DNA from: an uncultured Verrucomicrobiae bacterium
Lineage (GTDB): Bacteria > Verrucomicrobiota > Verrucomicrobiia > Limisphaerales > UBA11358
DNA: 64,000 bases
Reading direction: 5' to 3'
Assembly: GCA_963738175.1 (NCBI GenBank)
Contig: CAVTVI010000006.1
Location: 263,493-327,492 of the forward strand
Numbering within the stretch: the stretch's first letter is position 1; each line of letters starts with the position of its first letter. The notes under the pieces are model-generated. The model was not told the origin of the DNA and did no database searches. It saw only the letters and a program-made list of their open reading frames with translations. Both the position numbers and the translations under genes were made by a program. Below are positions 26,685 to 59,664 of this stretch, one piece after another.

Positions 26685-26706
26685 CGCCATGGGGTCTTCA
26701 CCCCAT
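26685..26706 (-). promoter_or_regulatory. stress-block palindromic box, copy 1
   Basis: Gene-sense sequence ATGGGGTGAAGACCCCATGGCG, 31 nt upstream of the DUF2934 ATG (DUF2934-dps unit). Confidence 0.6.
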
Positions 26707-26734
26707 TCGACAAAATTTCTAACTTCAGTCCGGT

Positions 26735-27775
26735 CTACTGGTTCGTCAGGATGACCTTCAAGGCGCGTTCCCGTCCGGCATTGCCGAAGGTGTCGTAGGC
26801 TTTTAGAATTTCATCGAGCGTGAAGTGATGCGTGATGAGTTGCGTCGGCTTGAGTTTCCCGGCCATGACCGTCTTGAGCAGCAACGGCGTGGTCACCGCG
26901 TCAACTAGCCGCGTCGTGATGGTCACGTTTTGCGACCAAAGTTTTTCGAGATGCAAGGTCACGCCTGCACCATGCACGCCGATGTTGGCAATATGGCCGC
27001 CCACGCCGATGATTTCCTGGCAGATGCCGAATGTCGCGGCCATACCGACTGCTTCGATGGCGACATCCACGCCTTTGCCGGAAGTCATGGCCATTACTTT
27101 TTCGACGGCCTTGCCATCGGTGCTATTGACCACCGCAGTCGCACCGAATTTTTTTGCGACCGCAAGCCGGTTATCATCGAGATCAATGACGATGATGCTT
27201 GCCGGAGCATAAAATTGCGTCGTCAGCAGCGCCGACAAACCGACGGGTCCGGCACCAATGATGGCCACCGTGTCGCCCGGTTTGACACAACCGTTTAGCA
27301 CGCCGCACTCGTAGCCAGTCGGCAAAATGTCGCTAAGCATAACCATCGCGTCGTCGTCCGCGCCCTCGGGAATGGGATAAAGACTGTTGTCCGCAAAAGG
27401 AATCCGGACGAACTCGGCCTGCGTTCCGTCAATCGTGTAGCCAAGGATCCAGCCGCCATGCTCGCAGTGGCCGGGCATGCCGCGCTTGCAATACTCGCAG
27501 GTGGCGCACGAAGTGATGCAGGAGATCATCACGCGGTCGCCCTTGCGAAAGCGGCTGACGCCAGTGCCGGCTTCTTCGATGATCCCGATTCCTTCATGGC
27601 CCAAAATACGGCCGTCAGTGACGACAGGCATGTCTCCTTTGAGAATGTGCAGGTCGGTTCCGCAAATGGTGGTCTTGGTCATCCGTACGATGGCGTCGGT
27701 CGCGTCGCGCAACGCGGGCTTGGGCATTTCTTCCAACTGCTTTTTTCCGGGGCCGTGATAAACGAGAGCTTTCAT
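26735..27775 (-). CDS. zinc-dependent alcohol dehydrogenase family oxidoreductase
   Basis: GHEGIGIIEEAG, structural Zn Cys cluster CTSCATCEYCKRG, Rossmann GAGPVGL. Confidence 0.88.
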   Translation of the reverse strand: MKALVYHGPGKKQLEEMPKPALRDATDAIVRMTKTTICGTDLHILKGDMPVVTDGRILGHEGIGIIEEAGTGVSRFRKGDRVMISCITSCATCEYCKRGMPGHCEHGGWILGYTIDGTQAEFVRIPFADNSLYPIPEGADDDAMVMLSDILPTGYECGVLNGCVKPGDTVAIIGAGPVGLSALLTTQFYAPASIIVIDLDDNRLAVAKKFGATAVVNSTDGKAVEKVMAMTSGKGVDVAIEAVGMAATFGICQEIIGVGGHIANIGVHGAGVTLHLEKLWSQNVTITTRLVDAVTTPLLLKTVMAGKLKPTQLITHHFTLDEILKAYDTFGNAGRERALKVILTNQ

Positions 27776-27793
27776 AAAAATGTGGCGGCAAGG

Positions 27794-28507
27794 TCAATCA
27801 ACTGCGGCGAACGAAGTCGTCTGGTGCGCGGGACTTTGCTCGATGGCTTCCTTGGTCAAATTGACGAACACCGTCGAGTCTTCGTAACTGATCCGCGCAA
27901 CTTTGCCCGCCGGGATCAGCACTTCTTTGCCGGAAAACCGGTGGCCGGTTTTGACGACGAGCCGACCAATCGCCCAGCTCTTGTCGTCCATCATGAAATC
28001 ACAGACGTGGCCGACAATTCCGTCGCTGGCCTTGACATGGTAGCCATTCACCACCCGCGTACTGCGCAGGTGCGCGTCGGCGGTTGCCCGCTTCGGATCC
28101 ATCGCCGACGCCTGTTCACTCAACAGTGGTTTTGCGGGCAATTCGAGGATTGGAAAACCGCTCATGCCCCACAAGCCATCGCCCTGCCAGTAGTAGGGCC
28201 AGCCGTAATAGCGGTAATATTCCTCTTCATACTGGCGCGACACCGGTTTGTGCCACTCGATCGGAGGACTATCCTCAATCTGTTTGCGGGTCAGGTTCAC
28301 GCGCAGGACTTTCCCGGCCTGATTGAGACTGCCGAAGGCATGAGGCGAGAGCAGCACCTGACGGCTCGTCAACCAGGTTCCCGTGTCGGCAACCAGATAA
28401 CGCACCGCCCAGCTCTGATCGTCGAAATAAAAATCTTTCACCTGCCCGATTTCACCATCCGACGCGCCGAGCTTGTCCCCGTATAATTTCTTGATGCTGC
28501 GCAACAT
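27794..28507 (-). CDS. PRC-barrel domain protein (two PRC-like segments)
   Basis: GDKLGASDGEIGQVKDFYFDDQSWAVRYLV and VKASDGIVGHVCDFMMDDKSWAIGRLV; ATG at 28507. Confidence 0.7.
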   Translation of the reverse strand: MLRSIKKLYGDKLGASDGEIGQVKDFYFDDQSWAVRYLVADTGTWLTSRQVLLSPHAFGSLNQAGKVLRVNLTRKQIEDSPPIEWHKPVSRQYEEEYYRYYGWPYYWQGDGLWGMSGFPILELPAKPLLSEQASAMDPKRATADAHLRSTRVVNGYHVKASDGIVGHVCDFMMDDKSWAIGRLVVKTGHRFSGKEVLIPAGKVARISYEDSTVFVNLTKEAIEQSPAHQTTSFAAVD

Positions 28508-28526: not shown

Positions 28527-28961
28527 TTATTTTCCGTTGTTTTGCCCGTGCTGGTCATCCTTTTGATTTTTCTTCTGGCCTTCATTCGAGCCGGATGGCT
28601 TCCAATTTTTCGGATACTTCTGGACCACCGCCGCATGGTGGTTTGCCGGGGAGTCGTGGAAATCCATCTTTACGGACGGGGAAGCCATCAGCACATTCAC
28701 CGTGACACCGCGTGGCGCCGGTCGTGCCACCCAGTCGTTGCCTTCCCGGTAGGCGTATTGGTGCCGGCTCACGCTGTAATAACATTCATACTGGGGGTAA
28801 TAAACGTAATCATCTTGCGCGGCGAACGCATAAGCATCCACTTGGACCCCGGCGCGCGGCCCGTCCACATAACCCACGCATCCGGTCAGCGTCACCAGAA
28901 GCACGGCGGCGAGCGTGAAAACAACCTTGCTGGTTTTGAAGAAAAGTTTTTTATAAATCAT
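28527..28961 (-). CDS. small secreted/lipoprotein, unknown family (paralog of 45854..46288)
   Basis: Signal/lipobox LVTLTGC. Shares the core DDYVYYPxY..YY.S.RHQYAY..G..WV..P.P.GV.V.VL.ASPSV.MD.HDSP..HHA...QKYP.NW.P.G with the paralog. Confidence 0.65.
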   Translation of the reverse strand: MIYKKLFFKTSKVVFTLAAVLLVTLTGCVGYVDGPRAGVQVDAYAFAAQDDYVYYPQYECYYSVSRHQYAYREGNDWVARPAPRGVTVNVLMASPSVKMDFHDSPANHHAAVVQKYPKNWKPSGSNEGQKKNQKDDQHGQNNGK

Positions 28962-28992
28962 CGGACGAAAATAATCGAACGAGACATCGGTG

Positions 28993-29014
28993 CGCCATGG
29001 GGTGTAACCCTACC
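28993..29014 (-). promoter_or_regulatory. stress-block palindromic box, copy 2
   Basis: GGTAGGGTTACACCCCATGGCG, 31 nt upstream of ATG 28961. Confidence 0.6.
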
Positions 29015-29059
29015 GCAAATTTTGCGAATTTATTTCCGTCCCGGTTGAGGCGCTGCAAC

Positions 29060-30529: not shown

Positions 30530-30532
30530 CGG

Positions 30533-34260: not shown

Positions 34261-34346
34261 GGCGGATAAATTATCGGGAGGGCAAATTTCAATTCAAGGA
34301 GTTGTTCCCTTTCATAACGCCATCATGCACAGGGAAGCTTTGCCAG

Positions 34347-34368
34347 TGCCATGGGGTGTTACCCTACC
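34347..34368 (-). promoter_or_regulatory. stress-block palindromic box, copy 3
   Basis: GGTAGGGTAACACCCCATGGCA, 86 nt upstream of ATG 34260 (CBM48-yqjDEK-like-GT4-GH130 unit). Confidence 0.6.
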
Positions 34369-34542
34369 AGAGGATTTTCGAGCCGGATTCCGGCACGATG
34401 CCGATACCTTCCCCATAAAGTGGCCCGCCAGTTCAATCTTTTCTCCGCCCGGTTCACGCTTCCAAATTGAACCAAGGGTTTTTCCAGTGGCGGCAAGGAA
34501 CACCCTAGTCGCGGCCCGGCTTCGCAGGACGTAACGGTAATT

Positions 34543-35519: not shown

Positions 35520-36065
35520 TCAATTTTCCTGCGGAATCAATCCCACCCGCAGGGCCAGCCGCACCAGTCCCGGAACGTCGTGAATTTTCAGGCAGTTCAT
35601 CAACTTTATACGATGGTATTCGACGGTCTTGGGACTGACCTTCAAAATCTCCGCAATCTTCTTCGTGTTCTGGCCTTCGGCAATCAGCAGGAGAATCTCG
35701 CGCTGCCGGATCGTCAACGGTTCGAGCGGGCTTTGCTCGCCGGCGATTCCATCCATGGTGATGTTTTTAAGGAATTGCGTGGAGATCTTCCCTTGCGAAT
35801 CAGCTTCCTTGCGGCTCGCACTTTTCAGAGCCGTCTCGGCCTGCTCGGTGCGCGTCTCGGCCTGTTCGGTTCGGATTTCGGCTTGTTCTGTCCGCGTCTT
35901 CGCCAGTTCCGTCCGGGTTTCAGCCTGTTCCGTGCGCGTCTCCGCTGATTCCGCGCGGGTCTTGGCCTGCTCGGTGCGCGTTTCAGCCTTCTCCGTCCGG
36001 GCTTCGGCCTGTTCAATCCTCGTTTTGCTGCCGGTCACGCCCGCAGGTTGATTCTTTTTTTTCAT
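35520..36065 (-). CDS. LuxR-family HTH regulator without a receiver domain, with an N-terminal heptad-repeat region
   Basis: C-terminal TIRQREILLLIAEGQNTKKIAEILKVSPKTVEYHRIKLMNCL. N-terminal region has about nine (A/T)ETRTEQ heptads. ATG at 36065. Confidence 0.8.
   Translation of the reverse strand: MKKKNQPAGVTGSKTRIEQAEARTEKAETRTEQAKTRAESAETRTEQAETRTELAKTRTEQAEIRTEQAETRTEQAETALKSASRKEADSQGKISTQFLKNITMDGIAGEQSPLEPLTIRQREILLLIAEGQNTKKIAEILKVSPKTVEYHRIKLMNCLKIHDVPGLVRLALRVGLIPQEN
35832..36020. repeat. 9 x 21-nt in-frame tandem repeat inside the LuxR-solo gene
   Basis: Units on the + strand: cgtctcggcctgctcggtgcg / cgtctcggcctgttcggttcg / ... / ggcttcggcctgttcaatcct. Confidence 0.9.
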
Positions 36066-36102
36066 TTCGACTCCATCACAATAAACAAAGAAATTTTGCG
36101 AG

Positions 36103-36125
36103 CGCCATGGGGTGTTTTCCCCATC
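36103..36125 (-). promoter_or_regulatory. stress-block palindromic box, copy 4
   Basis: GATGGGGAAAACACCCCATGGCG, 37 nt upstream of the LuxR-solo ATG 36065. Confidence 0.6.
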
Positions 36126-36178
36126 CTCAAACCAGACAGGTGAATCCAGTCCCGCTCGCGCAGGCGGCACGACCATGA

Positions 36179-36200
36179 GGTAGGGTTATACCCCATGGTA
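36179..36200 (+). promoter_or_regulatory. stress-block palindromic box, copy 5
   Basis: GGTAGGGTTATACCCCATGGTA on the + strand, 150 nt upstream of ATG 36351. Divergent partner of copy 4. Confidence 0.55.
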
Positions 36201-36350
36201 AATGACCGATTTGAACATATAATTTCAGTTGTAGTGCTGAAAGTCATGCAGGAAGATGAAATTGATTTGAGCACCGCGATCGGCATCAACGTACCGCCAC
36301 TCTAAAAAAACCTGTGGACAAAAATGGTCGGAGCCGATTAAAGAACCATC

Positions 36351-36956
36351 ATGAAATTCATCCTTCCATTACTCACGGCGGTGACATTGGCCGCCTGCCT
36401 TCTGACCGGCTGTCAATCGCCCAAGGCCATGTCTCCGCGCGAAAGCATTGCGACGCAATCCACGCGAAACAATGGCTACAGCCTGCTCCATCAACTTCTC
36501 GACGAGCAAAAAAATGTCGGCCTGCTGCGATTCATCAGACCCGAGAACTCCGATGTCAAAGAACTGGTGAAGCGGATTGCCACCGCTTCCGGAACCGGGG
36601 CAAAATTATTGGAGGCATTTGCCAAGGACGATCCTTCAATCAATCTGGACGACATCCGGCTGCCGCCGGGCGAAGTGGCCACGCGCGATGCGATTGCAGC
36701 CACCAAAAAAAAGGAATTGTTGAGCCAGAGCGGCGACACCTTTGAACTGACCCTGCTTTTGACCCAGACCGAGGCGTTGAGCTATGCCTGGCATCTGGCG
36801 GAAGTCACCGCCGAAAACGAGCCGCAACCCGAACGCGCCCGTGCGCTGGCCGGCATCAGTGACGACATGAAAAACCTCTATCACGAAGTGTTCGTCTTGT
36901 TGCTGTCGAAAACAGAATCATCGACCACGAACTCGATCACGGCTCAACCGCAATAG
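36351..36956 (+). CDS. hypothetical lipoprotein
   Basis: MKFILPLLTAVTLAACLLTGC lipobox; helical 201-aa body; no family recognised. Confidence 0.6.
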   Translation: MKFILPLLTAVTLAACLLTGCQSPKAMSPRESIATQSTRNNGYSLLHQLLDEQKNVGLLRFIRPENSDVKELVKRIATASGTGAKLLEAFAKDDPSINLDDIRLPPGEVATRDAIAATKKKELLSQSGDTFELTLLLTQTEALSYAWHLAEVTAENEPQPERARALAGISDDMKNLYHEVFVLLLSKTESSTTNSITAQPQ

Positions 36957-36984: not shown

Positions 36985-37003
36985 GATGGGTAGAATACCC
37001 CAT
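36985..37003 (+). promoter_or_regulatory. degenerate/orphan copy of the palindromic box
   Basis: GATGGGTAGAATACCCCAT on the + strand, with no + strand ORF downstream. Followed by a 9-bp-stem hairpin AACACCGCA..TGCGGTGTT. Confidence 0.3.
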
Positions 37004-37107
37004 AACACCGCAGGAACTTTTCGATTACGATACAATGCGGTGTTGATATTGGTTCTATTTATCAGTTTGTTTTTACTGGGCTTGTTCACAATCAGACCCT
37101 AGCTCAC

Positions 37108-39499: not shown

Positions 39500-39591
39500 G
39501 GTGATTTTATGTAAGGGGCTGTCATTACAGATGAGTGACATCGCTCCCGCATCCTTCATGGATTTTACGATAGACTGGAAAGCCTTGTGAC

Positions 39592-39613
39592 CGCCATGGG
39601 GTGTTCACCCCAT
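39592..39613 (-). promoter_or_regulatory. stress-block palindromic box, copy 6 (perfect 8-bp arms)
   Basis: ATGGGGTGAACACCCCATGGCG, 92 nt upstream of ATG 39499 (32 nt from the alternative ATG 39559). Confidence 0.6.
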
Positions 39614-39619
39614 TTGAGA

Positions 39620-40550
39620 CTATGGCGCGGAAAGCTGTTCGAGTTTTGCGCCCTCACGCTGCAAGAGGGTTGCTTCAACCCGGGGCACATACATTTGCGT
39701 TTCCGCCGGCAGATGTTCGGCGATGGCGTCGTAACTGTCCGTTTTATGGCGGTCCAAAAGTTTTTGCACCGTGCCTTCACCCGCGTTGTAAGCGGCCAAA
39801 GCGAGCCGCCAGTCCTTAAAACGGTCGTAAAGATATTTCAGATACTGGGCGGACGCGGTCGCGCTCGGTTCCGGCTGAAACCGTTGATCGCGCGGCCACA
39901 GCGAAAGACCAAACCGTCTGGCCGTGTCCGGCATCAATTGAAATAATCCTGCCGCTCCCGCCGGACTCATTGCGCGGCGGTCGAAGGACGATTCCACCTC
40001 CGCCACCCAGACCAGTTCCGGCGGAATCTTTTGCGCGGTAAAAATCGGCTTCAACTCCGGCACATATTCTTTTGCCAAAGCCGGCCACGGGAGCGACGGA
40101 AACTTTTTTCACCCAAAGCTCGCGTTCCTTTTCCGGCGGGGGATTGGGAACCGGTTGCGGCGGCTGGTTGGTTTCGGCTTTTGGCGGTGGAATCGTGAGC
40201 CGGATTTCGTCCGCGACATCCAGATAATCCATCTGCGACTTGAGCCACGCGGCATAGGGCTGCGTTTCTTCGCGACTTTCCAGCAGCGGCAGGATGGTTT
40301 GGGCGGTTTGCCGCAGCGTGGCAATGTCCACGACGTAGTCGCCTTGAAAGCGTTGCTGCACTTCGCGGAAAAATTGCCGCACCGCCTGCCCGTCCGCCTC
40401 GGGAAGCGCATTGAGAACATTCGTGTCGAGATTTTCCTGCGCCCACTGTTGCGCGCCTTGGATGAGATCCGGCAACGTGACCGTGTCGTCATCTGCCCGG
40501 GCGACCACTGAACCCGCCAAAAGCAACATAAGTGTGATAAAGCTTTTCAT
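39620..40550 (-). CDS. secreted lytic transglycosylase (SLT domain); frame broken once as given
   Basis: The N-terminal part, with signal peptide MKSFITLMLLLAGSVVARA, is in ORF 39816..40670. The SLT part (VAEVESSFDRRAMSPAGAAGLFQLMP..ALAAYNAGEG) is in ORF 39620..40078. The junction is near 40097. Confidence 0.8.
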
Positions 40551-40628
40551 GAAGCTGGCATGGTGACGGCGCAAATCAAAAGAAGGGAAAAATTCATCGG
40601 CTGAAAGCTGCCACATTCTGAAAGAGGT

Positions 40629-40650
40629 CGCAACGGGGTGTTCCACCCAT
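40629..40650 (-). promoter_or_regulatory. stress-block palindromic box, copy 7 (degenerate proximal flank)
   Basis: ATGGGTGGAACACCCCGTTGCG, 78 nt upstream of ATG 40550. Confidence 0.5.
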
Positions 40651-40712
40651 AATCTTGAATCAGACTTCATGAATTCAGTCCCGATACGTTTGGCAGAGGG
40701 ACACCATCAAAT

Positions 40713-40734
40713 AGTAGGGTTTTACCCCATGGCA
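40713..40734 (+). promoter_or_regulatory. stress-block palindromic box, copy 8
   Basis: AGTAGGGTTTTACCCCATGGCA on the + strand, 106 nt upstream of the mini-ORF at 40841. Divergent partner of copy 7. Confidence 0.55.
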
Positions 40735-40840
40735 AAAAGCGAGGGCACGTTCTAAAGTAAAAAAAGAAAAAAGTTGCCGGAACGCTTTTACAATTCACGG
40801 CGTCGGCATAAACAACAAGTGTAAAAACGAAAGACAAACT

Positions 40841-42198: not shown

Positions 42199-42666
42199 TC
42201 ACATCCGCAAACCATTGGATGACGGCTGGCTTTGCCGGTTTGGCGGCGGCGCAGATTGTTCGAGGCAACCGTCGCTCACGCGCAGAACATTGCCCACCGT
42301 GATCAATAACTCCTCGATGCTATAAGGTTTGAGCAGCGTGGCCTCGATTTGCAGCCACGGATGCCGGCTCAATTCATCTTCGGGAAAGGTTCCGGTGGCC
42401 ATGATGACCGGCAACGCCATGCGGGCGGCATGAACTTTCTTGACCAACTCAACACCTGTCATCCTCGGCATATCGTTGTCGGTGATCAGCAGATGATAAT
42501 TTTTAAGTTGCAACACTTCCCAAGCGTCAGCCCCGTCGTTGGCGGTATCAACCTCGTAGCCGGATTCAACCAGCACCGTGCTGTTGAGTTGGAGAATTAA
42601 AGGCTCGTCATCCGCCAGAAGAATGCGCTGGGGGGTCGTTTTGCACTTAAGTGGCGCGCTGGGCAA
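42199..42666 (-). CDS. stand-alone response-regulator receiver protein
   Basis: ILLADDEPLILQ..HLLITDNDMPRMTG..PVIMATG; 155 aa, no output domain. Confidence 0.85.
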   Translation of the reverse strand: MPSAPLKCKTTPQRILLADDEPLILQLNSTVLVESGYEVDTANDGADAWEVLQLKNYHLLITDNDMPRMTGVELVKKVHAARMALPVIMATGTFPEDELSRHPWLQIEATLLKPYSIEELLITVGNVLRVSDGCLEQSAPPPNRQSQPSSNGLRM

Positions 42667-42733
42667 CGTATTTCTCCGTCATGTAAAACTACTCTTTCTT
42701 TCATTTCGACATCATAGGCTGAAACCTTTGCGG

Positions 42734-42756
42734 CTGCCATGGGGTGTTTTACCCAT
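42734..42756 (-). promoter_or_regulatory. stress-block palindromic box, copy 9
   Basis: ATGGGTAAAACACCCCATGGCAG, 67 nt upstream of ATG 42666. Confidence 0.6.
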
Positions 42757-45853: not shown

Positions 45854-46288
45854 TTATTTTTTGTCGTGACCCGGCCCGGCATTCTCGTCGTGATGTTCAC
45901 CGGCAGGCCGCCAATTTCTCGGATACTTCTGCATCATCTCGGCATGATGCCGTTCCGGGGAGTCATGCCAATCCATGTGCACTGACGGTGAAGCCAGCAG
46001 CACTTCAACCGAGACTCCCATCGGCACCGGCGCAAAAACCCAGACACCGCCATCCAAATAAGCGTATTGGTGCCGGTGGCTGTTGTAATAGATGGCATAG
46101 TTGGGATAATATACATAGTCGTCCTGCACGATTACGACCGGGGGTGCCACGATCACGGGAGGCGGCACGCCGATCACGATGGTTACTCCGCCAGCGTAAC
46201 CCGCGCTTCCGGTCAGCGTCGCCAGCAGCACGGCACCCAGCACGAATGCAACCTTGTTAGTTTTTAAGAAATGTTTTTTGTTATTCAT
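45854..46288 (-). CDS. small secreted/lipoprotein, paralog of 28527..28961
   Basis: MNNKKHFLKTNKVAFVLGAVLLATLTGSAG.. Same conserved core as the 28.5-kb gene. Confidence 0.65.
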   Translation of the reverse strand: MNNKKHFLKTNKVAFVLGAVLLATLTGSAGYAGGVTIVIGVPPPVIVAPPVVIVQDDYVYYPNYAIYYNSHRHQYAYLDGGVWVFAPVPMGVSVEVLLASPSVHMDWHDSPERHHAEMMQKYPRNWRPAGEHHDENAGPGHDKK

Positions 46289-46317: not shown

Positions 46318-46339
46318 GCGCTATGGGGTGTAACCCGAA
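46318..46339 (-). promoter_or_regulatory. stress-block palindromic box, copy 10
   Basis: TTCGGGTTACACCCCATAGCGC, 29 nt upstream of ATG 46288. Confidence 0.6.
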
Positions 46340-46457
46340 GGAAGGCCCGGCACAATCCGCCGCAAAAATTTGACTTTTATTGATAATCCCCGCGAAGCAG
46401 GAGAAATGTCCGTCGTCCACTTAAAAAATCCGCGCGCCGAGATGGCTTGCTGGAAGA

Positions 46458-46655
46458 TTATTGCCAGAAGGAAATCACCGTTGAAGTCAACTCCTTGCCG
46501 GAAGGGAAAACTTTCCATTTGCCGTCATAATCAGCCACGGCCATGCACCGGAAATCTTCACATTGAACCCAATACCGTTGGCCGATTACCAGCCGTGGAT
46601 CGCCCACGAAGCGAGCATCTGATTTTTTGACGCTTTTGATCACCCTCTGCCACAC
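46458..46655 (-). CDS. hypothetical 65-aa protein
   Basis: GTG-started ORF directly behind box copy 11. Protein-like composition (..RYWVQCEDFRCMAVADYDGKWKVFPSGKEL..). No family recognised. Confidence 0.35.
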   Translation of the reverse strand: MWQRVIKSVKKSDARFVGDPRLVIGQRYWVQCEDFRCMAVADYDGKWKVFPSGKELTSTVISFWQ

Positions 46656-46676
46656 TAACCTTTTTCATCACCGCCT

Positions 46677-46698
46677 CGCCATGGGGTGTTCACCCTAT
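46677..46698 (-). promoter_or_regulatory. stress-block palindromic box, copy 11
   Basis: ATAGGGTGAACACCCCATGGCG, 21 nt upstream of GTG 46655. Confidence 0.55.
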
Positions 46699-46766
46699 AC
46701 GTTTCGGACTGATGCGCTACCTGACCTTCTCGTTCCGGCTGTTTGTTTCTGCTTCCGGCGTCGAAA

Positions 46767-47450
46767 TCAAACAATGGTCAACTGGACGCTGTTCTCGATG
46801 ATGCCCGCGCTGATGGCGTAGCGGGTGAGGCCGGCGGTGTCGTGGATGTCGAGCTTCTCCATGAGATGTTCGCGATGTTTCTCGACGGTCTTGATGCCGA
46901 TGCCCAATTCTTCCGCAGTTTGCTTGTTGGCCTTGCCTTCGGCGATGAGTTGCAGCACTTCCATTTCGCGCGAAGTCAGTTCGGAAATTTTCTTTTTAAG
47001 CAGTCCGGCGCGGTTCGGCGTTTTTTTATTCTGATGGTCGAGGCGTTTGGAAATGGAGGGACTGAAAAATGTTTTTCCTTTTTGGACTTCCCGGATCGCG
47101 CGGCACACCTCGTGGGCGGAAGTCTGCTTGAGCAGAAATCCCACCGCGCCGGAATCGGTCGCGTTTTTGACATACGCGTCGTCGCTGTGCGCGGAGAGCA
47201 TGAGCACTTTGGTGGCGGGAACGGCCTGGAGCACCTGCCGCGTGGCTTCCAATCCGTTGAGCAGCGGCATCGCGATGTCCATCAACACCACTTCGGGACG
47301 AAGTTTTTTCGCCAGCGCGACGGCCTGGCGACCGTCCTGCGCCTCGCCGACGATTTCAATGTCGTCTTCGAGTTCGAGCATCTTGCGAAAACCTTCGCGC
47401 ACGATCATGTGGTCTTCCGCGAGCAGGACGGTGATTCTTTTCATGGACAT
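46767..47450 (-). CDS. NarL/FixJ-family response regulator (REC + LuxR HTH)
   Basis: VLLAEDHMIVREG..VVLMDIAMPLLNG; LTSREMEVLQLIAEGKANKQTAEELGIGIKTVEKHREHLMEKL. Confidence 0.92.
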   Translation of the reverse strand: MSMKRITVLLAEDHMIVREGFRKMLELEDDIEIVGEAQDGRQAVALAKKLRPEVVLMDIAMPLLNGLEATRQVLQAVPATKVLMLSAHSDDAYVKNATDSGAVGFLLKQTSAHEVCRAIREVQKGKTFFSPSISKRLDHQNKKTPNRAGLLKKKISELTSREMEVLQLIAEGKANKQTAEELGIGIKTVEKHREHLMEKLDIHDTAGLTRYAISAGIIENSVQLTIV

Positions 47451-47465
47451 ATTAATGATGTTTCT

Positions 47466-48605
47466 TTACCGGATTTTTTTGCGGGGGGGGGGTAATTTGC
47501 CAAATGGAATTTCCACCTGGACGGCGGTGCCTTTGCCGGGCGCGGATTCGACGCAAAAAGTGCCGCCGACCATTTCGACGCGCTCCCTCATGCCGAGCAG
47601 TCCGAGACGGTTGCCGGTATTGGCGTGCAAGGCGCGCTCGACACTGAAAGATTTGCCGTCGTCCTTGATTTCCATGCGGGCGACGGCCTGAAATTTGCGG
47701 ATGTCCACTTCCACGCGGCGCGCGTGGGCGTGGCGGGCCACGTTGGTGAGCGCTTCCTGCGCCACGCGAAAGAGCACCGTCCGTTTGGCGATGTCCAATT
47801 GCTCGATGCCCGCAAACGCCTTCAAGTGAACCTGGAGGCGCGTCCGCTTGGAAAAGAGTTTCACGAACGAATGCAGCGCGGGGATCAAGCCGAGGTCGTC
47901 CAGCACCGCCGGGCGCAATTCGCGGGCGAACTGATGCACGATGTCCACGGATTTTTCCACGAGCCGCTGCGTGCTGGCGATGTTGCGGTCGAGATGCTTG
48001 GTGTTGAGCGCGGCCTCTTTTTTCAAGGCCGCGAGCCGGACGTTGATGCCGGTCAAAGTCTGGGCGATGACATCATGCAGTTCGCGGCTGATGCGTTTCC
48101 GCTCGTCCTCCTGCGCGGAAAGAATCTGGCGGGACAATTGCCGCAACTGCTCCTGCAGGCGTTCCGAATCCGCCAGCAACTTGCTGTAATGGTGCTCGCT
48201 TTTTTTAAGCGCCGTCTCCACCGCCTTGCGCTGGGCGATTTCCTGCTGCAACTCCACGTTCGAGGCGGCCAGTTCCACGGTGCGCTGGCTCAACATCTCG
48301 ACGATCTGGTTCAGGTGGACGGCGGCCTCGTGTGAGCCGCGATGGATTTTCTCGATGGGAGTGATCGCCTCGGTGAAAAAAATCCCCGCCTGCCTGATGA
48401 GCGCGGTGCGTTTGCCGGCCGCGCGACCCGGCAACACTTTGGTCACGAGGATTTGCTCATGGAGCTTGGCCATGTCCAGCGTCTGCAAGCCGACGTCCAG
48501 CGCCTGCTGGCCCATGCCGCGCGCCCGTTGCAGACGTGCGCGGGAGCGTTGCTTGAGATAAGCCTGCAGTTCCGCCTGATAACGTTTTGAAAATTTTTGT
48601 TTCAT
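47466..48605 (-). CDS. cytoplasmic sensor histidine kinase (HisKA_3 + HATPase_c)
   Basis: H-box ISRELHDVIAQTL; IKDDGKSF; LGLLGMRERVEMVGG. No TM segment. Confidence 0.9.
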   Translation of the reverse strand: MKQKFSKRYQAELQAYLKQRSRARLQRARGMGQQALDVGLQTLDMAKLHEQILVTKVLPGRAAGKRTALIRQAGIFFTEAITPIEKIHRGSHEAAVHLNQIVEMLSQRTVELAASNVELQQEIAQRKAVETALKKSEHHYSKLLADSERLQEQLRQLSRQILSAQEDERKRISRELHDVIAQTLTGINVRLAALKKEAALNTKHLDRNIASTQRLVEKSVDIVHQFARELRPAVLDDLGLIPALHSFVKLFSKRTRLQVHLKAFAGIEQLDIAKRTVLFRVAQEALTNVARHAHARRVEVDIRKFQAVARMEIKDDGKSFSVERALHANTGNRLGLLGMRERVEMVGGTFCVESAPGKGTAVQVEIPFGKLPPPRKKIR

Positions 48606-49300
48606 AACCCGGCGAATTCCCGCGCGACCCGCCGGACGGATTTGGCCGATTTTAACACCAGCCGCTGCGTGCTGGCGATTTCATTTTTGAGACCCCTGGT
48701 GTTGCGCCGCGCCTCCTGTTTCAATGAAAGCAGCCGGACATTGATGCCCAGCAAAGTCTGGGCGATTTCATCATGCAGTTCGCGGCTGATGTTCTTGCGG
48801 TCGTCTTCCTGCGCCGCCATCACCCGGTGCGTCAGCAGCCGCAGCCGCTTTTGCAACCGGAGCGATTCCTCCAGGCATTTGTTGTGGTGCTTCCCGGTTT
48901 TCTCGAAAGCGTCCTCCATGGCCTTGCGCCGGGTGATGCCGCGTTGCAACTGGCGGTTGGACACGGCCAGTTCTTCCGTGCGCTGGCCCAGCGTTTCGTT
49001 CAACCGGCTCAAGTCAATTTTGCCTTGCCGCGCGGCGCGATGTGTTTCCGCGATCGGAATGTTGGCCTCGGTGAAAAAAATCCCGGCCAGCTTGGTGAAG
49101 CCGTTTTTTATTTTGGATAATTCCAAGGTGGCGAGCGCGCGCTCGTGAATCCGCGCCAGTTCCAGCGTGCCCAGACCGAGGGCGACCGCCTCGCGTCCCA
49201 GTCCCAACGCCGGCTGCAGGCTTGCCTGCGGGCCTTGCTTCAGGTGTTTTCGCAACACAGCCACATACCGTTCCGACAAGCCGATTAGATTTTGCTTCAT
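48602..49300 (-). CDS. histidine-kinase paralog with sensor + DHp (H-box) but no ATPase domain
   Basis: Collinear with the N-terminal 230 aa of the 47466..48605 kinase (GIFFTEA, H-box ISRELHDEIAQTL). Ends at ..VAREFAGL-stop, where the kinase continues ARELRPAVLDDLGL. ATGA overlap with the kinase start. Confidence 0.8.
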   Translation of the reverse strand: MKQNLIGLSERYVAVLRKHLKQGPQASLQPALGLGREAVALGLGTLELARIHERALATLELSKIKNGFTKLAGIFFTEANIPIAETHRAARQGKIDLSRLNETLGQRTEELAVSNRQLQRGITRRKAMEDAFEKTGKHHNKCLEESLRLQKRLRLLTHRVMAAQEDDRKNISRELHDEIAQTLLGINVRLLSLKQEARRNTRGLKNEIASTQRLVLKSAKSVRRVAREFAGL

Positions 49301-49388: not shown

Positions 49389-49409
49389 GGATATGGGGTG
49401 AAACCCGAC
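49389..49409 (-). promoter_or_regulatory. stress-block palindromic box, copy 12
   Basis: GTCGGGTTTCACCCCATATCC, 88 nt upstream of ATG 49300. A second palindrome CCGGTGAACACCGG lies at 49431..49444. Confidence 0.5.
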
Positions 49410-49525
49410 CCCGATCAAAAATTTGAAAGCCCGGTGAACACCGGAGGAAAAGTGTTCGCCGGGCGATGCCGGCCTAAACAAAATTTTGTTTCGTCCAGGC
49501 TGTGCAAATGTTTCAAGTCCGCCCA

Positions 49526-49984: not shown

Positions 49985-50770
49985 TCAGTTCGCGGCCACA
50001 GGCACGGCGATGGTCATGTTGTTGATCACGCTGGTCACGCCGTTGATGTCGGCGGCGAGCTTGGTGACAAGGCTCTTTTCCGCGTCGTTTTTGGCGATTC
50101 CAGTCACGGTGACGACGCCGTCCGTTGTCGTAATTCCGGTATGAATGGCGCTGGTCGAACTGTGCGACATCAAGGACGACTTGACCTGGGCCGTGATAGA
50201 CGCGTCATCAATCTTGTCACCGATGGTTGCGTCGGGCGCGGTCGGCGGAGTTTTGGCAACTGTCATCTCGTTGTTGACCGATTTGACGTTGTCAATGTCC
50301 TTGGCGTATTCGGTGGTGAGTTCCTTCTGCGCCAGGCTGCTCGCCTCACCTTGCAAGGTGACGACGCCGTCTTTCGTATAAACGGTGGTTCCGGTGGCGC
50401 TCACGTTGCGATGGAACAACAGCGCGGTCTTCACTTTCGTGGTGATCCAGGCGTCGGAATGTTCCGCCGGCTGTTCGCCGCTGATTGTCAATTGATCATC
50501 CACGCTCGTGACGCCGGGCAAACTCGCCACGGTGTTTTCGGCCATGGATTTGTGCGACGCATCGGCGACCGTGCCGGTCAGGGTGACGACGCCGTCCTTG
50601 GATTCAACTTTGATTGAATCGTCCTTGAGATAGGTTTTGAACGTGTAGGACTTCGCGGCGGACGACTCGATGCGGCTGTCCGTGTCGGCGGCGCGCAAAG
50701 GCGAGCTGGTGATTAACAGGGTGCTGACGGCCGCCATGAGGGCGAGCGTACGGGTCGGTTTGATTTTCAT
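49985..50770 (-). CDS. periplasmic BON-domain protein (OsmY-like, 3-4 BON repeats)
   Basis: Signal peptide plus repeated ..V.V.TKDGVVTL.G.V......A...A..I.GV.SV.N.. modules. Confidence 0.85.
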   Translation of the reverse strand: MKIKPTRTLALMAAVSTLLITSSPLRAADTDSRIESSAAKSYTFKTYLKDDSIKVESKDGVVTLTGTVADASHKSMAENTVASLPGVTSVDDQLTISGEQPAEHSDAWITTKVKTALLFHRNVSATGTTVYTKDGVVTLQGEASSLAQKELTTEYAKDIDNVKSVNNEMTVAKTPPTAPDATIGDKIDDASITAQVKSSLMSHSSTSAIHTGITTTDGVVTVTGIAKNDAEKSLVTKLAADINGVTSVINNMTIAVPVAAN

Positions 50771-50842: not shown

Positions 50843-50864
50843 CGCTATGGGGTGTAACCCTACC
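50843..50864 (-). promoter_or_regulatory. stress-block palindromic box, copy 13
   Basis: GGTAGGGTTACACCCCATAGCG, 72 nt upstream of ATG 50770. Confidence 0.6.
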
Positions 50865-50903
50865 GTGCAGTTCAGGGATTTTTTTCCGAAATGCATGACG
50901 CGG

Positions 50904-51047
50904 TCATTTGGTGCCGTTCTGAATTCCCTGGCCGGCGTTTGAAACATCCTTGCCGAAGCCATGGGCCGTGTTGCAGCCCATGCCGGCGACGAGCGCGAGC
51001 GCGGTGACGGATGACAGAACGACGATGAGTTTGATTCGCTGGAACAT
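50904..51047 (-). CDS. entericidin-like small lipoprotein
   Basis: MFQRIKLIVVLSSVTALALVAGMGCNTAHGFGKDVSNAGQGIQNGTK; ATG at 51047. Confidence 0.7.
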   Translation of the reverse strand: MFQRIKLIVVLSSVTALALVAGMGCNTAHGFGKDVSNAGQGIQNGTK

Positions 51048-51137
51048 ATTTTTATGTTTGGGTTGATGGTTTTGCTGCGGGGTGATGAGCAATATTTTAT
51101 TTTTCACGGCCAGAGTATCACCCGGCCACCTTGCCGA

Positions 51138-51159
51138 CGCCATGGGGTGTAACCCTACT
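51138..51159 (-). promoter_or_regulatory. stress-block palindromic box, copy 14
   Basis: AGTAGGGTTACACCCCATGGCG, 90 nt upstream of ATG 51047. Confidence 0.6.
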
Positions 51160-51223
51160 GGCAGTCAAGAGGTGATTTCCGAAACACGCCGTTCTTTTAT
51201 TCCAGACGGCCTCAATATCCGCG

Positions 51224-57813: not shown

Positions 57814-58327
57814 GGTTGACCTCCTTCTTTCCGGGAGAAAGGACTTCACCGTTTTGGATCGAAGTTTCATCTCTCACTATATTTGGCGGCGGTTCATTGA
57901 CCGCCGCCCAAAAGACACCGACTTGTTTGACCGCCTTCATAAACTCCGAAAAATCCACGGGCTTTACCACATAGGCGTTGACGCCATGCTTGTAAAACTC
58001 GGCCAAATCGGGCGCTTCACGCGAAGAAGTGAGCACCACGACCGGAATCAACTTCAAATGTTCGTCCGCCTTCATGGTTTTCAGAACTTCCAATCCGCTG
58101 ACCTTGGGCATTTTGTTGTCGAGCAAGACGACCACGGGATTGCCGGGCGGGCGGCTTTTGAATTTCCCCCGGTGATAAAGATAATCCAGCGCCTCCGCGC
58201 CGTCGTGAACGACTTTGACCTTGTTGGCCAGATGTTGCTCCTCCAGCGCGGTCAACGTCAGTTCCACATCCCGCAGATCATCCTCGACCAGCAGGATGTT
58301 TTTGATGCTTCTGCTTTCAGTGTTCAT
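57776..58327 (-). CDS. single-domain response regulator (CheY/Rcp1-like)
   Basis: ILLVEDDLRDVELT..VVLLDNKMPKVSG..VVVLTSS..AYVVKPVDF. Confidence 0.9.
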   Translation of the reverse strand: MNTESRSIKNILLVEDDLRDVELTLTALEEQHLANKVKVVHDGAEALDYLYHRGKFKSRPPGNPVVVLLDNKMPKVSGLEVLKTMKADEHLKLIPVVVLTSSREAPDLAEFYKHGVNAYVVKPVDFSEFMKAVKQVGVFWAAVNEPPPNIVRDETSIQNGEVLSPGKKEVNHEIPAPHPASGG

Positions 58328-59537
58328 TGATGACTCCGTTTTGTTGCTTTGGGATTGAAAAATAAAAAGTCGCGCCGCCGTCCATCACGCCTTCCGCCCA
58401 CACCCGGCCGCCGTGCCGGTGAATGATGCGCTGGACGTTCGCCAGCCCGATGCCCGTGCCCTCGAACTCGGCCTGACTGTGCAGGCGCTGAAACACGCCG
58501 AACAGTTTGTGGGCATATTGCGGATCGAAACCCGCGCCGTTGTCGCGGATGAAAACCACCGTCTCACCATCGCCGCCCGGAACACAGCCAATCTCGATTT
58601 TGGCCTCGGCGCGGCCGCCGGTGAACTTCACCGCATTGGAAATCAGATTGACCAGCACCAGGCGCAACAGGGCGCGGTCGGCCTGAACGGCCGGCAGCGG
58701 AAGGATTTTGCACGCAATCTTCCGCTCTTTTGTCTCGGCCTGAAAATCACCCAAGGTTTCGCGGACCAGTTCTTCGAGATTGATTTCCGTCTTTTTCAAT
58801 TCGGCACGTCCTATGCGCGAGAACGCCAGCAGGTCGTCAATCAAATCACCCATGCGCTTGGTTGACTGGGAAATAACGGCCAGATGCCGGAGGCTTTTTT
58901 CGGACAGCGACGGCCCAGCGTCGTTTTGCAGCAGATTCACGAAGCCCAGAACATGGCGCAGCGGCGCGCGCAAATCGTGCGAGACGGAATAACTGAACGC
59001 TTCCAGCTCCGCATTGGCGGCTTCCAGTTGCGCCGTGCGTTCAGTGACACGCTGCTCCAGTTCCGCGTTGAGACGTCGTATTTCACCTTCCGCCCGTTTG
59101 TGCTCGGTTATGTCGCGGATGTTGCATTGAATCACTTTTTTGTCACCGGCTTCATACACATTGCTGACAAACTCGACGGCACTCTTGCGACCGTCCCTCG
59201 TTTCCAGCGGCAGATGCTCATAGCGGACATAACCGTTCTTTTGTAATCGCTCAAGCATGACCTTGTTCGACTCGATGTCCTTGAACGGACTCAACTCGCC
59301 GACAGTTAGGCCGACCATTTCGTTGCGGGAAAAACCCAAGAGGTTAACCAGGAAAGGATTCACATCAGTGATGCGGCCCGTATCCACATTCAGAATCAGG
59401 ATGCCGTCCTTTGCCGCTTCAAACAGCCGGCGATAACTGATTTCAGAGGCGCGAAGCGCCTGCTCTGTCCGCGTCTCGTCTGGCACAGTGTGGATTTCGC
59501 TGTGAGCAACATTCCGGTTTTGATGATCACTGTTCAT
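58317..59537 (-). CDS. cytoplasmic PAS histidine kinase
   Basis: PAS (YRRLFEAAKDGILILN); H-box VSHDLRAPLRHV; IRDNGAGF; GTGIGLA. Confidence 0.9.
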   Translation of the reverse strand: MNSDHQNRNVAHSEIHTVPDETRTEQALRASEISYRRLFEAAKDGILILNVDTGRITDVNPFLVNLLGFSRNEMVGLTVGELSPFKDIESNKVMLERLQKNGYVRYEHLPLETRDGRKSAVEFVSNVYEAGDKKVIQCNIRDITEHKRAEGEIRRLNAELEQRVTERTAQLEAANAELEAFSYSVSHDLRAPLRHVLGFVNLLQNDAGPSLSEKSLRHLAVISQSTKRMGDLIDDLLAFSRIGRAELKKTEINLEELVRETLGDFQAETKERKIACKILPLPAVQADRALLRLVLVNLISNAVKFTGGRAEAKIEIGCVPGGDGETVVFIRDNGAGFDPQYAHKLFGVFQRLHSQAEFEGTGIGLANVQRIIHRHGGRVWAEGVMDGGATFYFSIPKQQNGVINEH

Positions 59538-59640
59538 GATCCTGTCACCGTTAATTTCATTTCTCCCCGCAAAGTTTGGCTTACGCCATCAAGAGATTTC
59601 TCGGGCAATGGTTTAATGATGAACAGAAAAGGGACACAAT

Positions 59641-59664
59641 CGCCATGGGGTGTTCACCCCATGG
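59641..59664 (-). promoter_or_regulatory. stress-block palindromic box, copy 15 (perfect 10-bp arms)
   Basis: CCATGGGGTG-AA-CACCCCATGG followed by CG, 103 nt upstream of ATG 59537. Heads the six-gene signalling operon. Confidence 0.6.

Follow-up and report, generated by a model that had tools for sequence, protein, structure and literature searches.

A palindromic element repeated upstream of stress-type genes in Verrucomicrobiota: a probable promoter-embedded operator of a NarL-family response regulator

What is the short palindrome that stands in front of so many genes in one block of this genome? Across the 64,000-nt stretch of DNA that we analysed (the window), the pattern ACCCCATGG matches 12 times, compared with 0.36 matches expected (both strands; maximum of 2 in 100 shuffles), a copy number beyond chance, as a sequence-only reading of the window had held. 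The matches are confined to positions 26687 to 59664, and the same count yields no copy of the element in 1–26.6 kb or 59.7–64 kb. The 22-bp palindrome is a real repeat: all 15 copies listed in that reading are present, each within 26.7–59.7 kb, ACCCC is invariant among them, ACCCCAT is found in 14 of 15 (the copy at 40629 has ACCCCGT), and a GGG run occurs in the distal arm of every copy. The copies were also correctly described as intergenic, with each lying upstream of and facing a gene after correction of start codons; ORFs 35520–36176 and 39816–40670 overlap a copy because the mechanical ORF list uses the first possible start codon.

The element exists in two length classes. Class P (copies at 26685, 36103, 39592, 42735, 46677 and 59641, with that at 40629 as a degenerate member) is a 7-2-7 palindrome, aTGGGGTG-AA-CACCCCAt. 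Class A (copies at 28993, 34347, 36178, 40712, 46319, 49389, 50843 and 51138) has the form GGTAGGGTT(A/T)-CACCCCAT, also given as TAGGGTT-A-CACCCCA (7-1-7 spacing), and is 1 base shorter. The dyad is symmetric, but only its gene-proximal flank has a conserved TGGC/TAGC extension. An additional degenerate copy is located at 36985–37007, between convergent genes.

The geometry of the surrounding promoters was derived from 199 instances of the element in the window and in 119 loci from many genomes. In 114 of these instances, TAnnnT begins 28–30 nt past the A of ACCCC, with neighbouring offsets accounting for 1–4 instances each, and this offset places the 7-2-7 palindrome ~32 bp upstream of a −10 box (31.5–32.5 bp from the repeat centre), overlapping the −35 region. 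The distance between motif and −10 box is constant within 1 bp across many genomes and genes. Approximately 40% of the instances have no clean TAnnnT at the expected offset, and some of these represent the palindrome's non-promoter face or chance matches. ATG peaks at offsets 40–43 (57 instances, 36 of which open ORFs of at least 50 aa). About one-quarter of the promoters begin directly at an ATG, and the corresponding mRNAs appear to be leaderless; in the verrucomicrobium Akkermansia, ~10% of the transcription starts that have been mapped are leaderless (PMC4782308). The element itself aside, no TTGACA-like −35 hexamer was recognisable in these promoters, no second conserved box was seen around the element in the aligned instances, and no flanking sequence common to the copies was found. 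Transcription-start positions and all numbering relative to +1 are predictions from sequence. The element is most likely a promoter-embedded operator, rather than an RNA hairpin or a mobile repeat.

The proposal that the element belongs to an undescribed regulon and precedes almost all operons of the block gained support and can be extended to many Verrucomicrobiota genomes. A genome scan with the motif gave matches mostly in Verrucomicrobiota, Lentisphaerae and Kiritimatiellales, and orthologues of window genes were found behind the motif in these other genomes. Across Verrucomicrobiota, the motif lies upstream of orthologous genes for BON, PRC-barrel, Dps, SOD, YflT, DUF892 and receiver proteins. 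The motif-selected loci were fetched with a pattern fixing GCCATGGGGTG, which makes the conservation seen at those bases partly circular for this set; secondary copies and loci selected by the response-regulator gene (RR-selected loci) were used to counter this. The target set comprises Dps, BON/OsmY-like, PRC-barrel and entericidin-like proteins, SOD, catalase-peroxidase, YflT, DUF892, small lipoproteins, a GT4/GH130/CBM48 sugar operon, a phospholipase-D-like enzyme, and further kinases and receivers; it looks like a general-stress or stationary-phase regulon. The stress-gene control circuit is apparently conserved across Verrucomicrobiota and previously undescribed.

The only regulator recurrently linked to the motif is a NarL-type two-component operon, and the candidate cognate operon in the window lies on the minus strand at 46767–49300. 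It contains two HisKA_3 kinase genes, one for a truncated paralogue with a weak RsbU_N-like match and HisKA_3 but without an ATPase domain (48602–49300) and one for a full HisKA_3 kinase (47466–48605), followed by a gene for a NarL-family response regulator with REC and GerE domains (46767–47450). The closest solved relatives of this regulator are VraR, NarL, DesR and DevR, and it falls under every NCBIfam equivalog cut-off, including that for NarL (135 bits vs. cut-off of 250). Both kinases match RsbU_N, as do stressosome output proteins, with scores (22.5 and 23.3 bits) below the Pfam gathering score of 25.5. RsbU_N is the domain for activation of RsbU by RsbT, and non-RsbU signalling proteins that carry it are proposed RsbT targets in Proteobacteria (PMC9237108). 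RsbR/S/T genes are absent from the window, and a stressosome connection of the kinases is only a lead.

Unbiased clustering of all ORFs in the motif-selected loci gave the kinase (26 loci) and the regulator (21 loci) as the top clusters, the next being present in 9 loci; neither another DNA-binding protein nor a sigma-factor gene was recurrent in this clustering. Reciprocally, 80 loci chosen by the regulator gene alone (508 kb) contained 189 motif matches, compared with 8 in a reversed-sequence control. The promoter of the two-component operon itself carries the motif in 16 of 24 RR-selected loci, at 70–140 nt upstream of the first kinase gene (one extra copy at 173 nt), and allowing for a degenerate distal arm raises the count to 22 of 24. 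This orthologous promoter has a class A site in some loci and a class P site in others, which points to one protein as the binder of both classes. In the window, a class A copy (GGTCGGGTTTCACCCCATATCC, 49389–49411, minus strand) upstream of the operon is a putative autoregulatory site.

We consider, with a probability of about 0.6, that a NarL/LuxR-family (GerE helix-turn-helix) response regulator uses the element as its operator within sigma-70-type promoters, the REC-GerE protein encoded at 46767–47450 being most likely that regulator. Binding of the motif by this protein, activation rather than repression, and the inducing signal are what we infer from these comparisons. A regulator dimer would bind the 7-2-7 repeat TGGGGTG-AA-CACCCCA, or the 1-base-shorter TAGGGTT-A-CACCCCA, with the repeat centre between about −43.5 and −44.5, ~32 bp ahead of the TAnnnT −10 box, so that the gene-proximal half-site and the one-sided TGGC extension would take the place of the −35 hexamer. 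The bound regulator would recruit RNA polymerase (class-II-type activation) to promoters without a good −35 element, and transcription would start 6–7 nt past the −10 box, in about one-quarter of cases at the A of the start codon to yield a leaderless mRNA. Phosphorylation by the HisKA_3 kinase or kinases encoded just upstream would allow the regulator to activate the stress-gene promoters as well as its own operon, where the site would confer positive autoregulation. A single rigid dimer would not usually accommodate the 1-base difference in half-site spacing between the two classes, which counts against this explanation.

The consensus of the NarL heptamer is TACYYMT, and the half-site core ACCCC resembles it. 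Like the 7-2-7 sites of Escherichia coli NarL, the element has two 7-bp half-sites with a 2-bp gap and is probably bound by a NarL/FixJ-family regulator with a GerE-type helix-turn-helix. It differs in its half-site (CACCCCA), in the outward orientation of the half-sites (G-run, then C-run, the opposite of TACCCCT-NN-AGGGGTA for NarL), in the common occurrence of a second length class (7-1-7), and in its targets, which are stress genes rather than the nitrate respiration genes of NarL. At the E. coli ogt1052 promoter, NarL needs no more than one 7-2-7 site for activation (PMC9314961); that site is centred at −44.5, 32 bp upstream of the −10 element, compared with 31.5–32.5 bp between centre and −10 box here. 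DevR/DosR, which governs the dormancy regulon of Mycobacterium tuberculosis, is likewise a NarL-family regulator with HisKA_3 kinases, is autoregulated (as predicted here), recognises an 18–20 bp palindromic box (GGG...CCC, with the outer GGG and CCC 8 nt apart, as in the element), and controls dozens of clustered stress-survival genes (PMC3177182), as may also be the case here. The Dev half-site is GGGACT, however, rather than GGGGTG, and 2–4 tandem boxes are present at every DevR promoter (PMC3177182), whereas the element is accompanied by no second conserved box. The kinases described here also have a weak RsbU_N-like NH2-terminus instead of GAF/haem domains, and VraR, NarL and DesR are nearer to the regulator than DevR is; the phylum, too, is unrelated.

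An activator operator with the same geometry might instead be bound by another protein, with the two-component operon being merely a regulated target, but we regard this as doubtful. The coiled-coil LuxR/GerE solo regulator encoded at 35520–36065, which is preceded by a motif copy of its own within the block, and a factor encoded outside the window are candidates, given that genes of global regulators need not adjoin their sites and that two length classes might mean two proteins. Orthologues of the solo regulator were nevertheless found in 0 of 119 motif-selected and 1 of 80 RR-selected loci, the response-regulator and kinase genes form the top clusters, the site upstream of their operon is kept in 16 to 22 of 24 independently selected loci, and classes A and P swap at the same orthologous promoter.

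Phosphorylation-activated NarL-family regulators with such geometry are usually activators. The sequence-only reading had allowed for a repressor or an activator operator, and the evidence favours the latter. A repressor dimer that blocks RNA polymerase at the −35 region until stress frees the promoter is improbable: such a position is classic for repressors, and autoregulated repressors are common, but apart from the motif no TTGACA-like −35 hexamer can be recognised in the promoters, the distance to the −10 box is fixed within 1 bp, as is typical of activators that need polymerase contact, and a NarL 7-2-7 site at equal distance activates (PMC9314961). The promoter of an alternative sigma factor, also proposed earlier, is very unlikely. 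The conserved ACCCCATGGC would then be a −35 element of, for example, an ECF-type factor, with which the fixed spacing to the downstream box, the one-sided conservation of the extension, and the stress-type targets would be compatible. Gene content is indeed similar to that of the general stress regulons of SigB (Bacillus), RpoS (E. coli) and EcfG (Alphaproteobacteria), including Dps, OsmY/BON, YflT, YciE/F-like DUF892, entericidin-like lipoprotein, catalase, SOD and small stress proteins, and one promoter signature is likewise common to many scattered or clustered operons. However, the downstream box is a plain TAnnnT rather than an ECF-type −10, the 16–24 bp dyad reaches to about −52 and far exceeds the contact of sigma region 4, perfect palindromes lie between divergent genes at three loci, and the motif-linked loci have no recurrent sigma-factor gene. 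The shared signature here is a dyad operator beside an ordinary −10 box, from which we infer a two-component activator and not a dedicated sigma factor. The remaining suggestions, a 5′-UTR RNA hairpin (riboregulator or protein-binding stem-loop) or a REP/MITE-type repeat, can practically be dismissed: class P copies are able to form a 7-bp stem (−10.6 kcal/mol, z = −2.3), but class A copies, about half of the window set, fold no better than shuffled sequence (z = 0 to +0.6), aligned copies show no compensatory changes (judged by eye), no Rfam match was obtained even at E ≤ 1, the element lies upstream of the predicted start, with many genes beginning 6–7 nt past the −10 box and the start codon often ~41 nt past ACCCC with that box between, so that the motif would not be transcribed, and the copies have unrelated flanks, a fixed distance to the −10 box, and an orientation that always follows the gene.

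With the activator operator as the preferred reading, genes can be assigned provisionally to the window copies, all of which are on the minus strand with the exception of those at 36178 and 40712. The copy at 26685–26707 (aaTGGGGTGAAGACCCCATGGCG; −10 TATTCT, 26660–26665; putative leaderless ATG, 26653) is predicted to drive genes for a DUF2934 small protein (26405–26653) and Dps (25851–26480; ORF-finder limits), and that at 28993–29015 (GGTAGGGTTACACCCCATGGCG; −10 TATTTT, 28968–28973; putative leaderless ATG, 28961) those for a small lipoprotein, a PRC-barrel protein and a Zn-alcohol dehydrogenase (28961 down to 26735). The copy at 34347–34369 (−10 CATGAT, 34322–34327) probably serves genes for a CBM48 protein, a holin-X-like protein, GT4 and GH130 (34260 down to 29060), and the orthologous operon with the motif is present in four other loci. 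The solo regulator gene (corrected start, 36065) would be driven from 36103–36125 (class P variant, GATGGGGAAAACACCCCATGGCG; −10 TATTGT, 36078–36083), and a gene for a 201-aa protein of unknown function (36351–36956) from 36178–36200 on the plus strand (GGTAGGGTTATACCCCATGGTA; −10 TATAAT, 36218–36223). A perfect class P copy at 39592–39614 (ATGGGGTGAACACCCCAT; −10 TATCGT, 39567–39572; putative leaderless ATG, 39559) is predicted to control genes for a 410-aa unknown protein and a phospholipase D/cardiolipin-synthase-like protein (39559 down to 37108). The weakest copy, at 40629–40651 (TATGGGTGGAACACCCCGTTGCG), has a poor −10 box (CAGCTT) and lies upstream of a 284-aa ORF region (listed as 39816–40670), and the plus-strand copy at 40712–40734 (AGTAGGGTTTTACCCCATGGCA; −10 TAAAGT, 40753–40758) may drive a PEP-CTERM protein gene (40974–41747).

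The class P variant at 42735–42757 (CATGGGTAAAACACCCCATGGCA; −10 TATGAT, 42711–42716) probably controls the gene for a receiver-only REC protein (42199–42666), orthologues of which lie behind the motif in four loci and close to the response-regulator gene in 28 of 80 RR-selected loci. A small lipoprotein paralogous to that of 28527–28961 is the predicted product downstream of 46319–46341 (TTCGGGTTACACCCCATAGCG; −10 TACTCT; putative leaderless ATG, 46288), and this promoter and gene are also found together in three other loci. Directly past the stop codon of the response-regulator gene, the copy at 46677–46699 (TATAGGGTGAACACCCCATGGCG; −10 TAGTGT, 46652–46657) would drive only a 61-aa ORF (46461–46643) or a short RNA; 18 of 75 RR-selected loci likewise have a motif just after the regulator gene, with varying cargo. 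The copies at 50843–50865 (GGTAGGGTTACACCCCATAGCG) and 51138–51160 (AGTAGGGTTACACCCCATGGCG) are predicted to drive genes for a triple-BON-domain (OsmY-like) protein (49985–50770), whose orthologues lie behind the motif in four loci, and an entericidin-like small lipoprotein (50907–51107), respectively. The element at 59641–59666 is a near-perfect 24-bp palindrome (GCCATGGGGTGAACACCCCATGGG) with no good −10 box on its plus face; its minus face (−10 CATCAT, 59616–59621) is predicted to drive a six-gene signalling operon (59537 down to 51224) encoding a PAS kinase, a REC protein, two hybrid kinases, a 433-aa protein without a family match, and a 141-aa PBP-like protein.

The sequence-only reading had described 15 copies of a palindromic element, and the recurrence is real: counting both strands, the window contains 12 matches to the pattern ACCCCATGG, where dinucleotide-preserving shuffles lead one to expect 0.36 (at most 2 in any shuffle). 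All of the matches lie within 26687-59664, and a looser pattern recovered each of the 15 coordinates. ACCCC is kept in every copy and ACCCCAT in 14 of the 15, the exception being the copy at 40629 (ACCCCGT). Read in the sense of the downstream gene, the copies form two length classes. Class P (aTGGGGTG-AA-CACCCCAt, a 7-2-7 inverted repeat) comprises the copies at 26685, 36103, 39592, 42734, 46677 and 59641 and a degenerate version at 40629. Class A, GGTAGGGTT(A/T)-CACCCCAT, is one base shorter, differs in the distal (gene-distal) arm and comprises those at 28993, 34347, 36179, 40713, 46318, 49389, 50843 and 51138. A description as two 7-bp half-sites with a 2-bp gap, TGGGGTG-AA-CACCCCA, holds for class P only, about half of the copies; class A is of the form 7-1-7. 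The extension TGGC(G/A) or TAGC is present on the gene-proximal side only, all 15 copies point at the downstream gene, and flanking sequence is unrelated from copy to copy. An extra degenerate copy (GATGGGTAGAATACCCCATAACA at 36985-37007, followed 29 nt on by TACGAT) sits where a 201-aa gene and a phospholipase-D-like gene converge, between their 3' ends; directed antisense into the latter, it may act as an antisense promoter or be a site in decay.

To characterize promoter geometry, 199 instances from the window and the loci of other genomes were aligned on ACCCC. A TAnnnT hexamer begins 28-30 nt downstream of ACCCC in 114 of these instances, with adjacent offsets represented by only 1-4 each, and judging by its sequence it is an ordinary sigma-70-type -10 box (in the window TATTCT, TATTTT, TATTGT, TATAAT, TATCGT and TATGAT, among others). 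The distance from the class P dyad centre to the -10 box is 31.5-32.5 bp; relative to the predicted transcription start, the A of ACCCC would then fall near -41 and the dyad centre at about -43.5 to -44.5. The -35 position is taken up by the proximal half-site and its TGGC extension (ATGGCG), and an alignment of 211 instances showed no information content beyond -11 on the upstream side, counted from ACCCC. With the start so placed, the arrangement, an operator at a fixed distance from the -10 box and a weak or absent -35 hexamer, is that of a class II activator-dependent sigma-70 promoter.

The same alignment revealed a pile-up of ATG codons at offsets 40-43 from ACCCC, 6-7 nt past the -10 box, in 57 instances or about a quarter of motif promoters; 36 of the 57 open ORFs of at least 50 aa. 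Such starts are found in the window at 26653, 28961, 39559 and 46288 (also 46643 and 51107) and, among other loci, in L003, L017, L037, L084, L092, L096 and L100 (L001-L119 denoting loci from other genomes selected by the motif). Given that their N-termini are also conserved in orthologues, as in L084, L092, L003 and L017, many of the transcripts are probably leaderless, which implies that the Verrucomicrobiota regulon would regularly give rise to leaderless mRNAs. This fits Akkermansia muciniphila, in which about 10% of mapped transcription starts are leaderless (PMC4782308).

A scan with the pattern GCCATGGGGTGN{2,3}ACCCYA, with one genome per species, yielded at least 119 loci, and the majority of those listed carry Verrucomicrobiota labels. 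The matches listed include Limisphaerales/subdivision 3, Verrucomicrobiales, Akkermansiaceae, Opitutales, Prosthecobacter, Haloferula and Luteolibacter, as well as Lentisphaerae/Victivallales and Kiritimatiellales. Closest to the window among them are Limisphaerales-type MAGs, whose nucleotide identity to it is 75-84% across several operons. The proposal that the element marks a regulon was supported beyond the window, in that the motif, among the matches listed, precedes orthologues of window genes in related genomes (GT4/GH130/CBM48, PRC-barrel, BON, DUF2934 and REC-only proteins, small lipoproteins and PAS kinase). MAGs labelled Bifidobacteriaceae (L003, L008, L050, L058, L079, L099) or Klebsiella (L107) carry the motif together with 77-80% identical orthologues; these labels are therefore almost certainly wrong and the content verrucomicrobial. 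Actinomycetota matches to TGGGGTCGCACCCCATGGC, which lack the -10 box and whose flanks look like coding sequence, were taken as chance.

A Pfam census of the 103 first ORFs downstream of instances with motif and -10 box found REC in 8, BON in 5, PRC in 3, Fe/Mn superoxide dismutase, DUF892, YflT and DUF2934 in 2 each, and catalase-peroxidase in 1; Dps lies behind the motif in L043, L064 and L119. Together with Dps, these families make up the gene set of a general-stress or stationary-phase regulon. The window's first 24 kb has no motif copy and carries housekeeping and energy genes (PFOR, [NiFe]-hydrogenase subunits with HypD/E/F, H+-pyrophosphatase, rpsB, tsf and a tRNA gene at 24166-24237). 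The motif block encodes a DUF2934 small protein, Dps, small lipoproteins, a PRC-barrel protein, a Zn-alcohol dehydrogenase, a CBM48/holin-X-like/GT4/GH130 operon, a coiled-coil LuxR solo regulator, a phospholipase-D-like enzyme, a PEP-CTERM protein, a receiver-only protein, a NarL-type two-component operon, a triple-BON protein, an entericidin-like lipoprotein and a six-gene operon comprising PAS and hybrid kinases, a receiver and two small ORFs.

To search for the protein that reads the motif, all ORFs of the motif-selected loci were clustered without prior assumptions. Among the at least 119 loci, the top clusters were a HisKA_3 kinase (26 loci) and a 225-aa REC-GerE regulator (21 loci); a third cluster (21 loci) is apparently an antisense ORF of the kinase gene, and the next real cluster comprises 9 loci. 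Another binding protein is the alternative that fares best, and no further recurrent DNA-binding protein or sigma factor appeared among the ORF clusters of the motif-selected loci listed. Both clusters correspond to the two-component operon of the window (46767-49300, minus strand; regulator at 46767-47450). Wherever the 5' end of this kinase-kinase-regulator operon is visible in the motif-selected loci, the motif faces it from about 70-150 nt upstream, and a further copy often lies behind the regulator stop codon.

The reciprocal test was performed with 80 metagenome loci (508 kb) selected solely by similarity to the regulator, which contain 189 motif matches compared with 8 in reversed-sequence controls. 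The first kinase gene is preceded by the motif at a distance of 70-140 nt (with one extra copy at 173 nt) in 16 of 24 informative loci, or in 22 of 24 if a degenerate distal arm beside an intact CACCCCATATAC is allowed; most misses in an earlier, strict positional test of these loci (12 of 28 upstream) were of this kind. At this one orthologous promoter the motif is, for example, of class A in L121, L131 and L169 and of class P in L122, L167 and L173 (loci numbered L121-L194 belonging to the regulator-selected set), and such alternation argues that one protein reads both classes. Genomic linkage thus points to the REC-GerE regulator as the candidate motif binder. The proximal extension at the two-component promoter of the window (49389-49411) is ATATCC in place of ATGGCG, and an ATATAC/ATAGAC extension occurs at the same promoter in the regulator-selected loci; given that the variant is conserved across genomes, the autoregulatory promoter may be tuned differently from target promoters.

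The regulator belongs to the NarL/FixJ family, with VraR, NarL, DesR and DevR as its nearest solved relatives, and is strongly conserved, the best 120 of at least 8000 scored relatives being 84-93% identical. Neither the regulator nor the kinases fit an NCBIfam equivalog; for the regulator the best match, MctR, scores 207 bits where 300 are required. The regulator protein as listed had no exact match in the contig index; its true start is probably two codons further on, with relatives of 225 aa. The kinases show sub-threshold RsbU_N matches, which by analogy hint at an RsbT-like input; the same kind of input has been suggested for certain stressosome outputs of Proteobacteria (PMC9237108). No RsbR/S/T genes were found within the window. 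The truncated kinase paralogue (48602-49300, minus strand) combines an RsbU_N-like N-terminus with a HisKA_3 dimerisation/phosphoacceptor domain and lacks the ATPase domain. It is conserved in tandem before the full kinase in L019, L022, L024, L031, L043, L047, L067, L081 and L098, and could serve as a phosphatase, an inhibitor or a phosphotransfer partner.

In E. coli, the NarL heptamer is TACYYMT, and two heptamers converge on the centre of the site. The motif appears to work like the NarL 7-2-7 site and the DevR/DosR Dev box, but belongs to neither. Its half-site is CACCCCA and the orientation is everted, with the G-run before the C-run, so that by the above consensus it is, strictly speaking, no NarL site. 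The Dev box is an 18-20 bp palindrome with the half-site G4G5G6A7C8T9 (GGGACT), and every DevR promoter has two to four tandem boxes (PMC3177182), whereas the half-site here is GGGGTG, with the GGG...CCC frame alone in common, and no second conserved box is present.

Class-II-type activation is the best-supported model for the motif promoters. A phosphorylated regulator dimer would bind the dyad overlapping the -35 region and recruit RNA polymerase to a promoter that otherwise offers a -10 box only; with the regulator's own operon among the targets, positive feedback would result. The one-sided TGGC extension may, as a guess, be read by sigma region 4. The geometry has direct experimental precedent in E. 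coli, where a lone NarL 7-2-7 site whose centre, at -44.5, precedes the -10 element by 32 bp suffices for NarL-dependent activation (PMC9314961). The one-base difference in spacing between classes A and P would be unusual for one rigid dimer.

We tentatively propose, with a probability of roughly 0.4 for the reading as a whole, that Verrucomicrobiota, together with Lentisphaeria and Kiritimatiellia lineages, run a general stress/stationary-phase response via one autoregulated NarL-type two-component system, with no dedicated sigma factor. Its kinases' RsbU_N-like input might couple to an RsbT-like partner, and its phylum-wide 7-2-7 operator would lie inside ordinary sigma-70 promoters, many giving leaderless mRNAs; here the regulon would be concentrated in an approximately 35-kb stress island beside a tRNA gene. 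Such a regulon is functionally akin to the SigB, RpoS and EcfG general-stress regulons, but apparently driven by a two-component activator instead.

Two readings suggested earlier from sequence gave way. As the promoter of an alternative sigma factor, the element would not be expected to combine a 16-24 bp dyad with a generic TAnnnT -10 box, and no linked sigma-factor gene was found among the motif-selected loci listed. Sigma-54, considered for TGGC(A/G), was rejected given that the GG-N10-GC frame, assessed by eye, suits only the copy at 34347. The 5'-UTR hairpin was rejected on the grounds that class A copies fold like shuffles (z of about 0) and that the motif precedes the -10 box and thus the predicted transcription start; Rfam matched no family anywhere in the block, whether at gathering score or with E <= 1. 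A REP/MITE-like repeat is incompatible with the unrelated flanks, the gene-facing orientation and the motif's position before orthologous genes elsewhere.

Soil, peat, freshwater and gut all harbour abundant Verrucomicrobiota, and to our knowledge almost nothing is known of their gene regulation. The motif string retrieved only unrelated primer sequences from full-text literature, and searchable literature on Verrucomicrobia promoter motifs, general stress response, stressosome and transcription start sites gave no account of the system. Response-regulator operators in activator-dependent promoters are a well-known kind of element; the regulon itself appears to be new, with conservation across the phylum. 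It offers a testable unit of one operator, one candidate regulator and defined targets, a promoter architecture recognisable by eye in metagenomes, a handle on stress or dormancy states of uncultured members via metatranscriptomes, and a source of inducible promoter parts for Verrucomicrobiota genetic tools. It is also a possible third design of general stress response, with a two-component activator where other phyla have SigB/RpoS or EcfG.

Several further features of the window were observed. Preceded by the perfect palindrome, the six-gene operon (59537-51224, minus strand) has genes for a PAS kinase, a REC protein, a pair of hybrid kinases, a 433-aa protein without family match and a 141-aa PBP-like protein; its kinase/REC content suggests a regulator-induced phosphorelay, as a feed-forward or signal-integration layer. 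The tRNA gene (24166-24237) lies some 2.4 kb past the leftmost copy (26685) and immediately beyond the leftward unit's final gene, making the stress block tRNA-adjacent; neither an integrase nor a GC shift was seen there. The operon from the 26685 promoter may also take in, within 24286-26480, the genes for Dps and a transglutaminase-like protein and an ORF of 130 aa. A 465-aa ORF at 22524-23921 (plus strand) with amino-acid-kinase (UMP-kinase-like) and formamidopyrimidine-DNA glycosylase domains is either a true fusion or two neighbouring genes joined by the mechanical ORF finder. The LuxR/GerE solo regulator (35520-36065, minus strand), with an N-terminal coiled coil of TRTEQAE-like repeats matching the Tropomyosin family, lies behind its own operator copy and is not conserved beside the motif in related loci. 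Within 46330-46700, the copy right after the regulator stop codon would drive just a 61-aa ORF (46461-46643, GTG start) or a short RNA; elsewhere the cargo at this position is Dps (L043, L064), a repeat-rich lipoprotein (L016, L055) or a desaturase-like membrane protein (L005). Two paralogous small lipoproteins (28527-28961 and 45854-46288), which begin MxxKKxFFKT, carry a lipobox LTGC or LTGS and match no family, each show a class A operator and a predicted leaderless start, and homologues with the same promoter are present in L084, L092 and L037.
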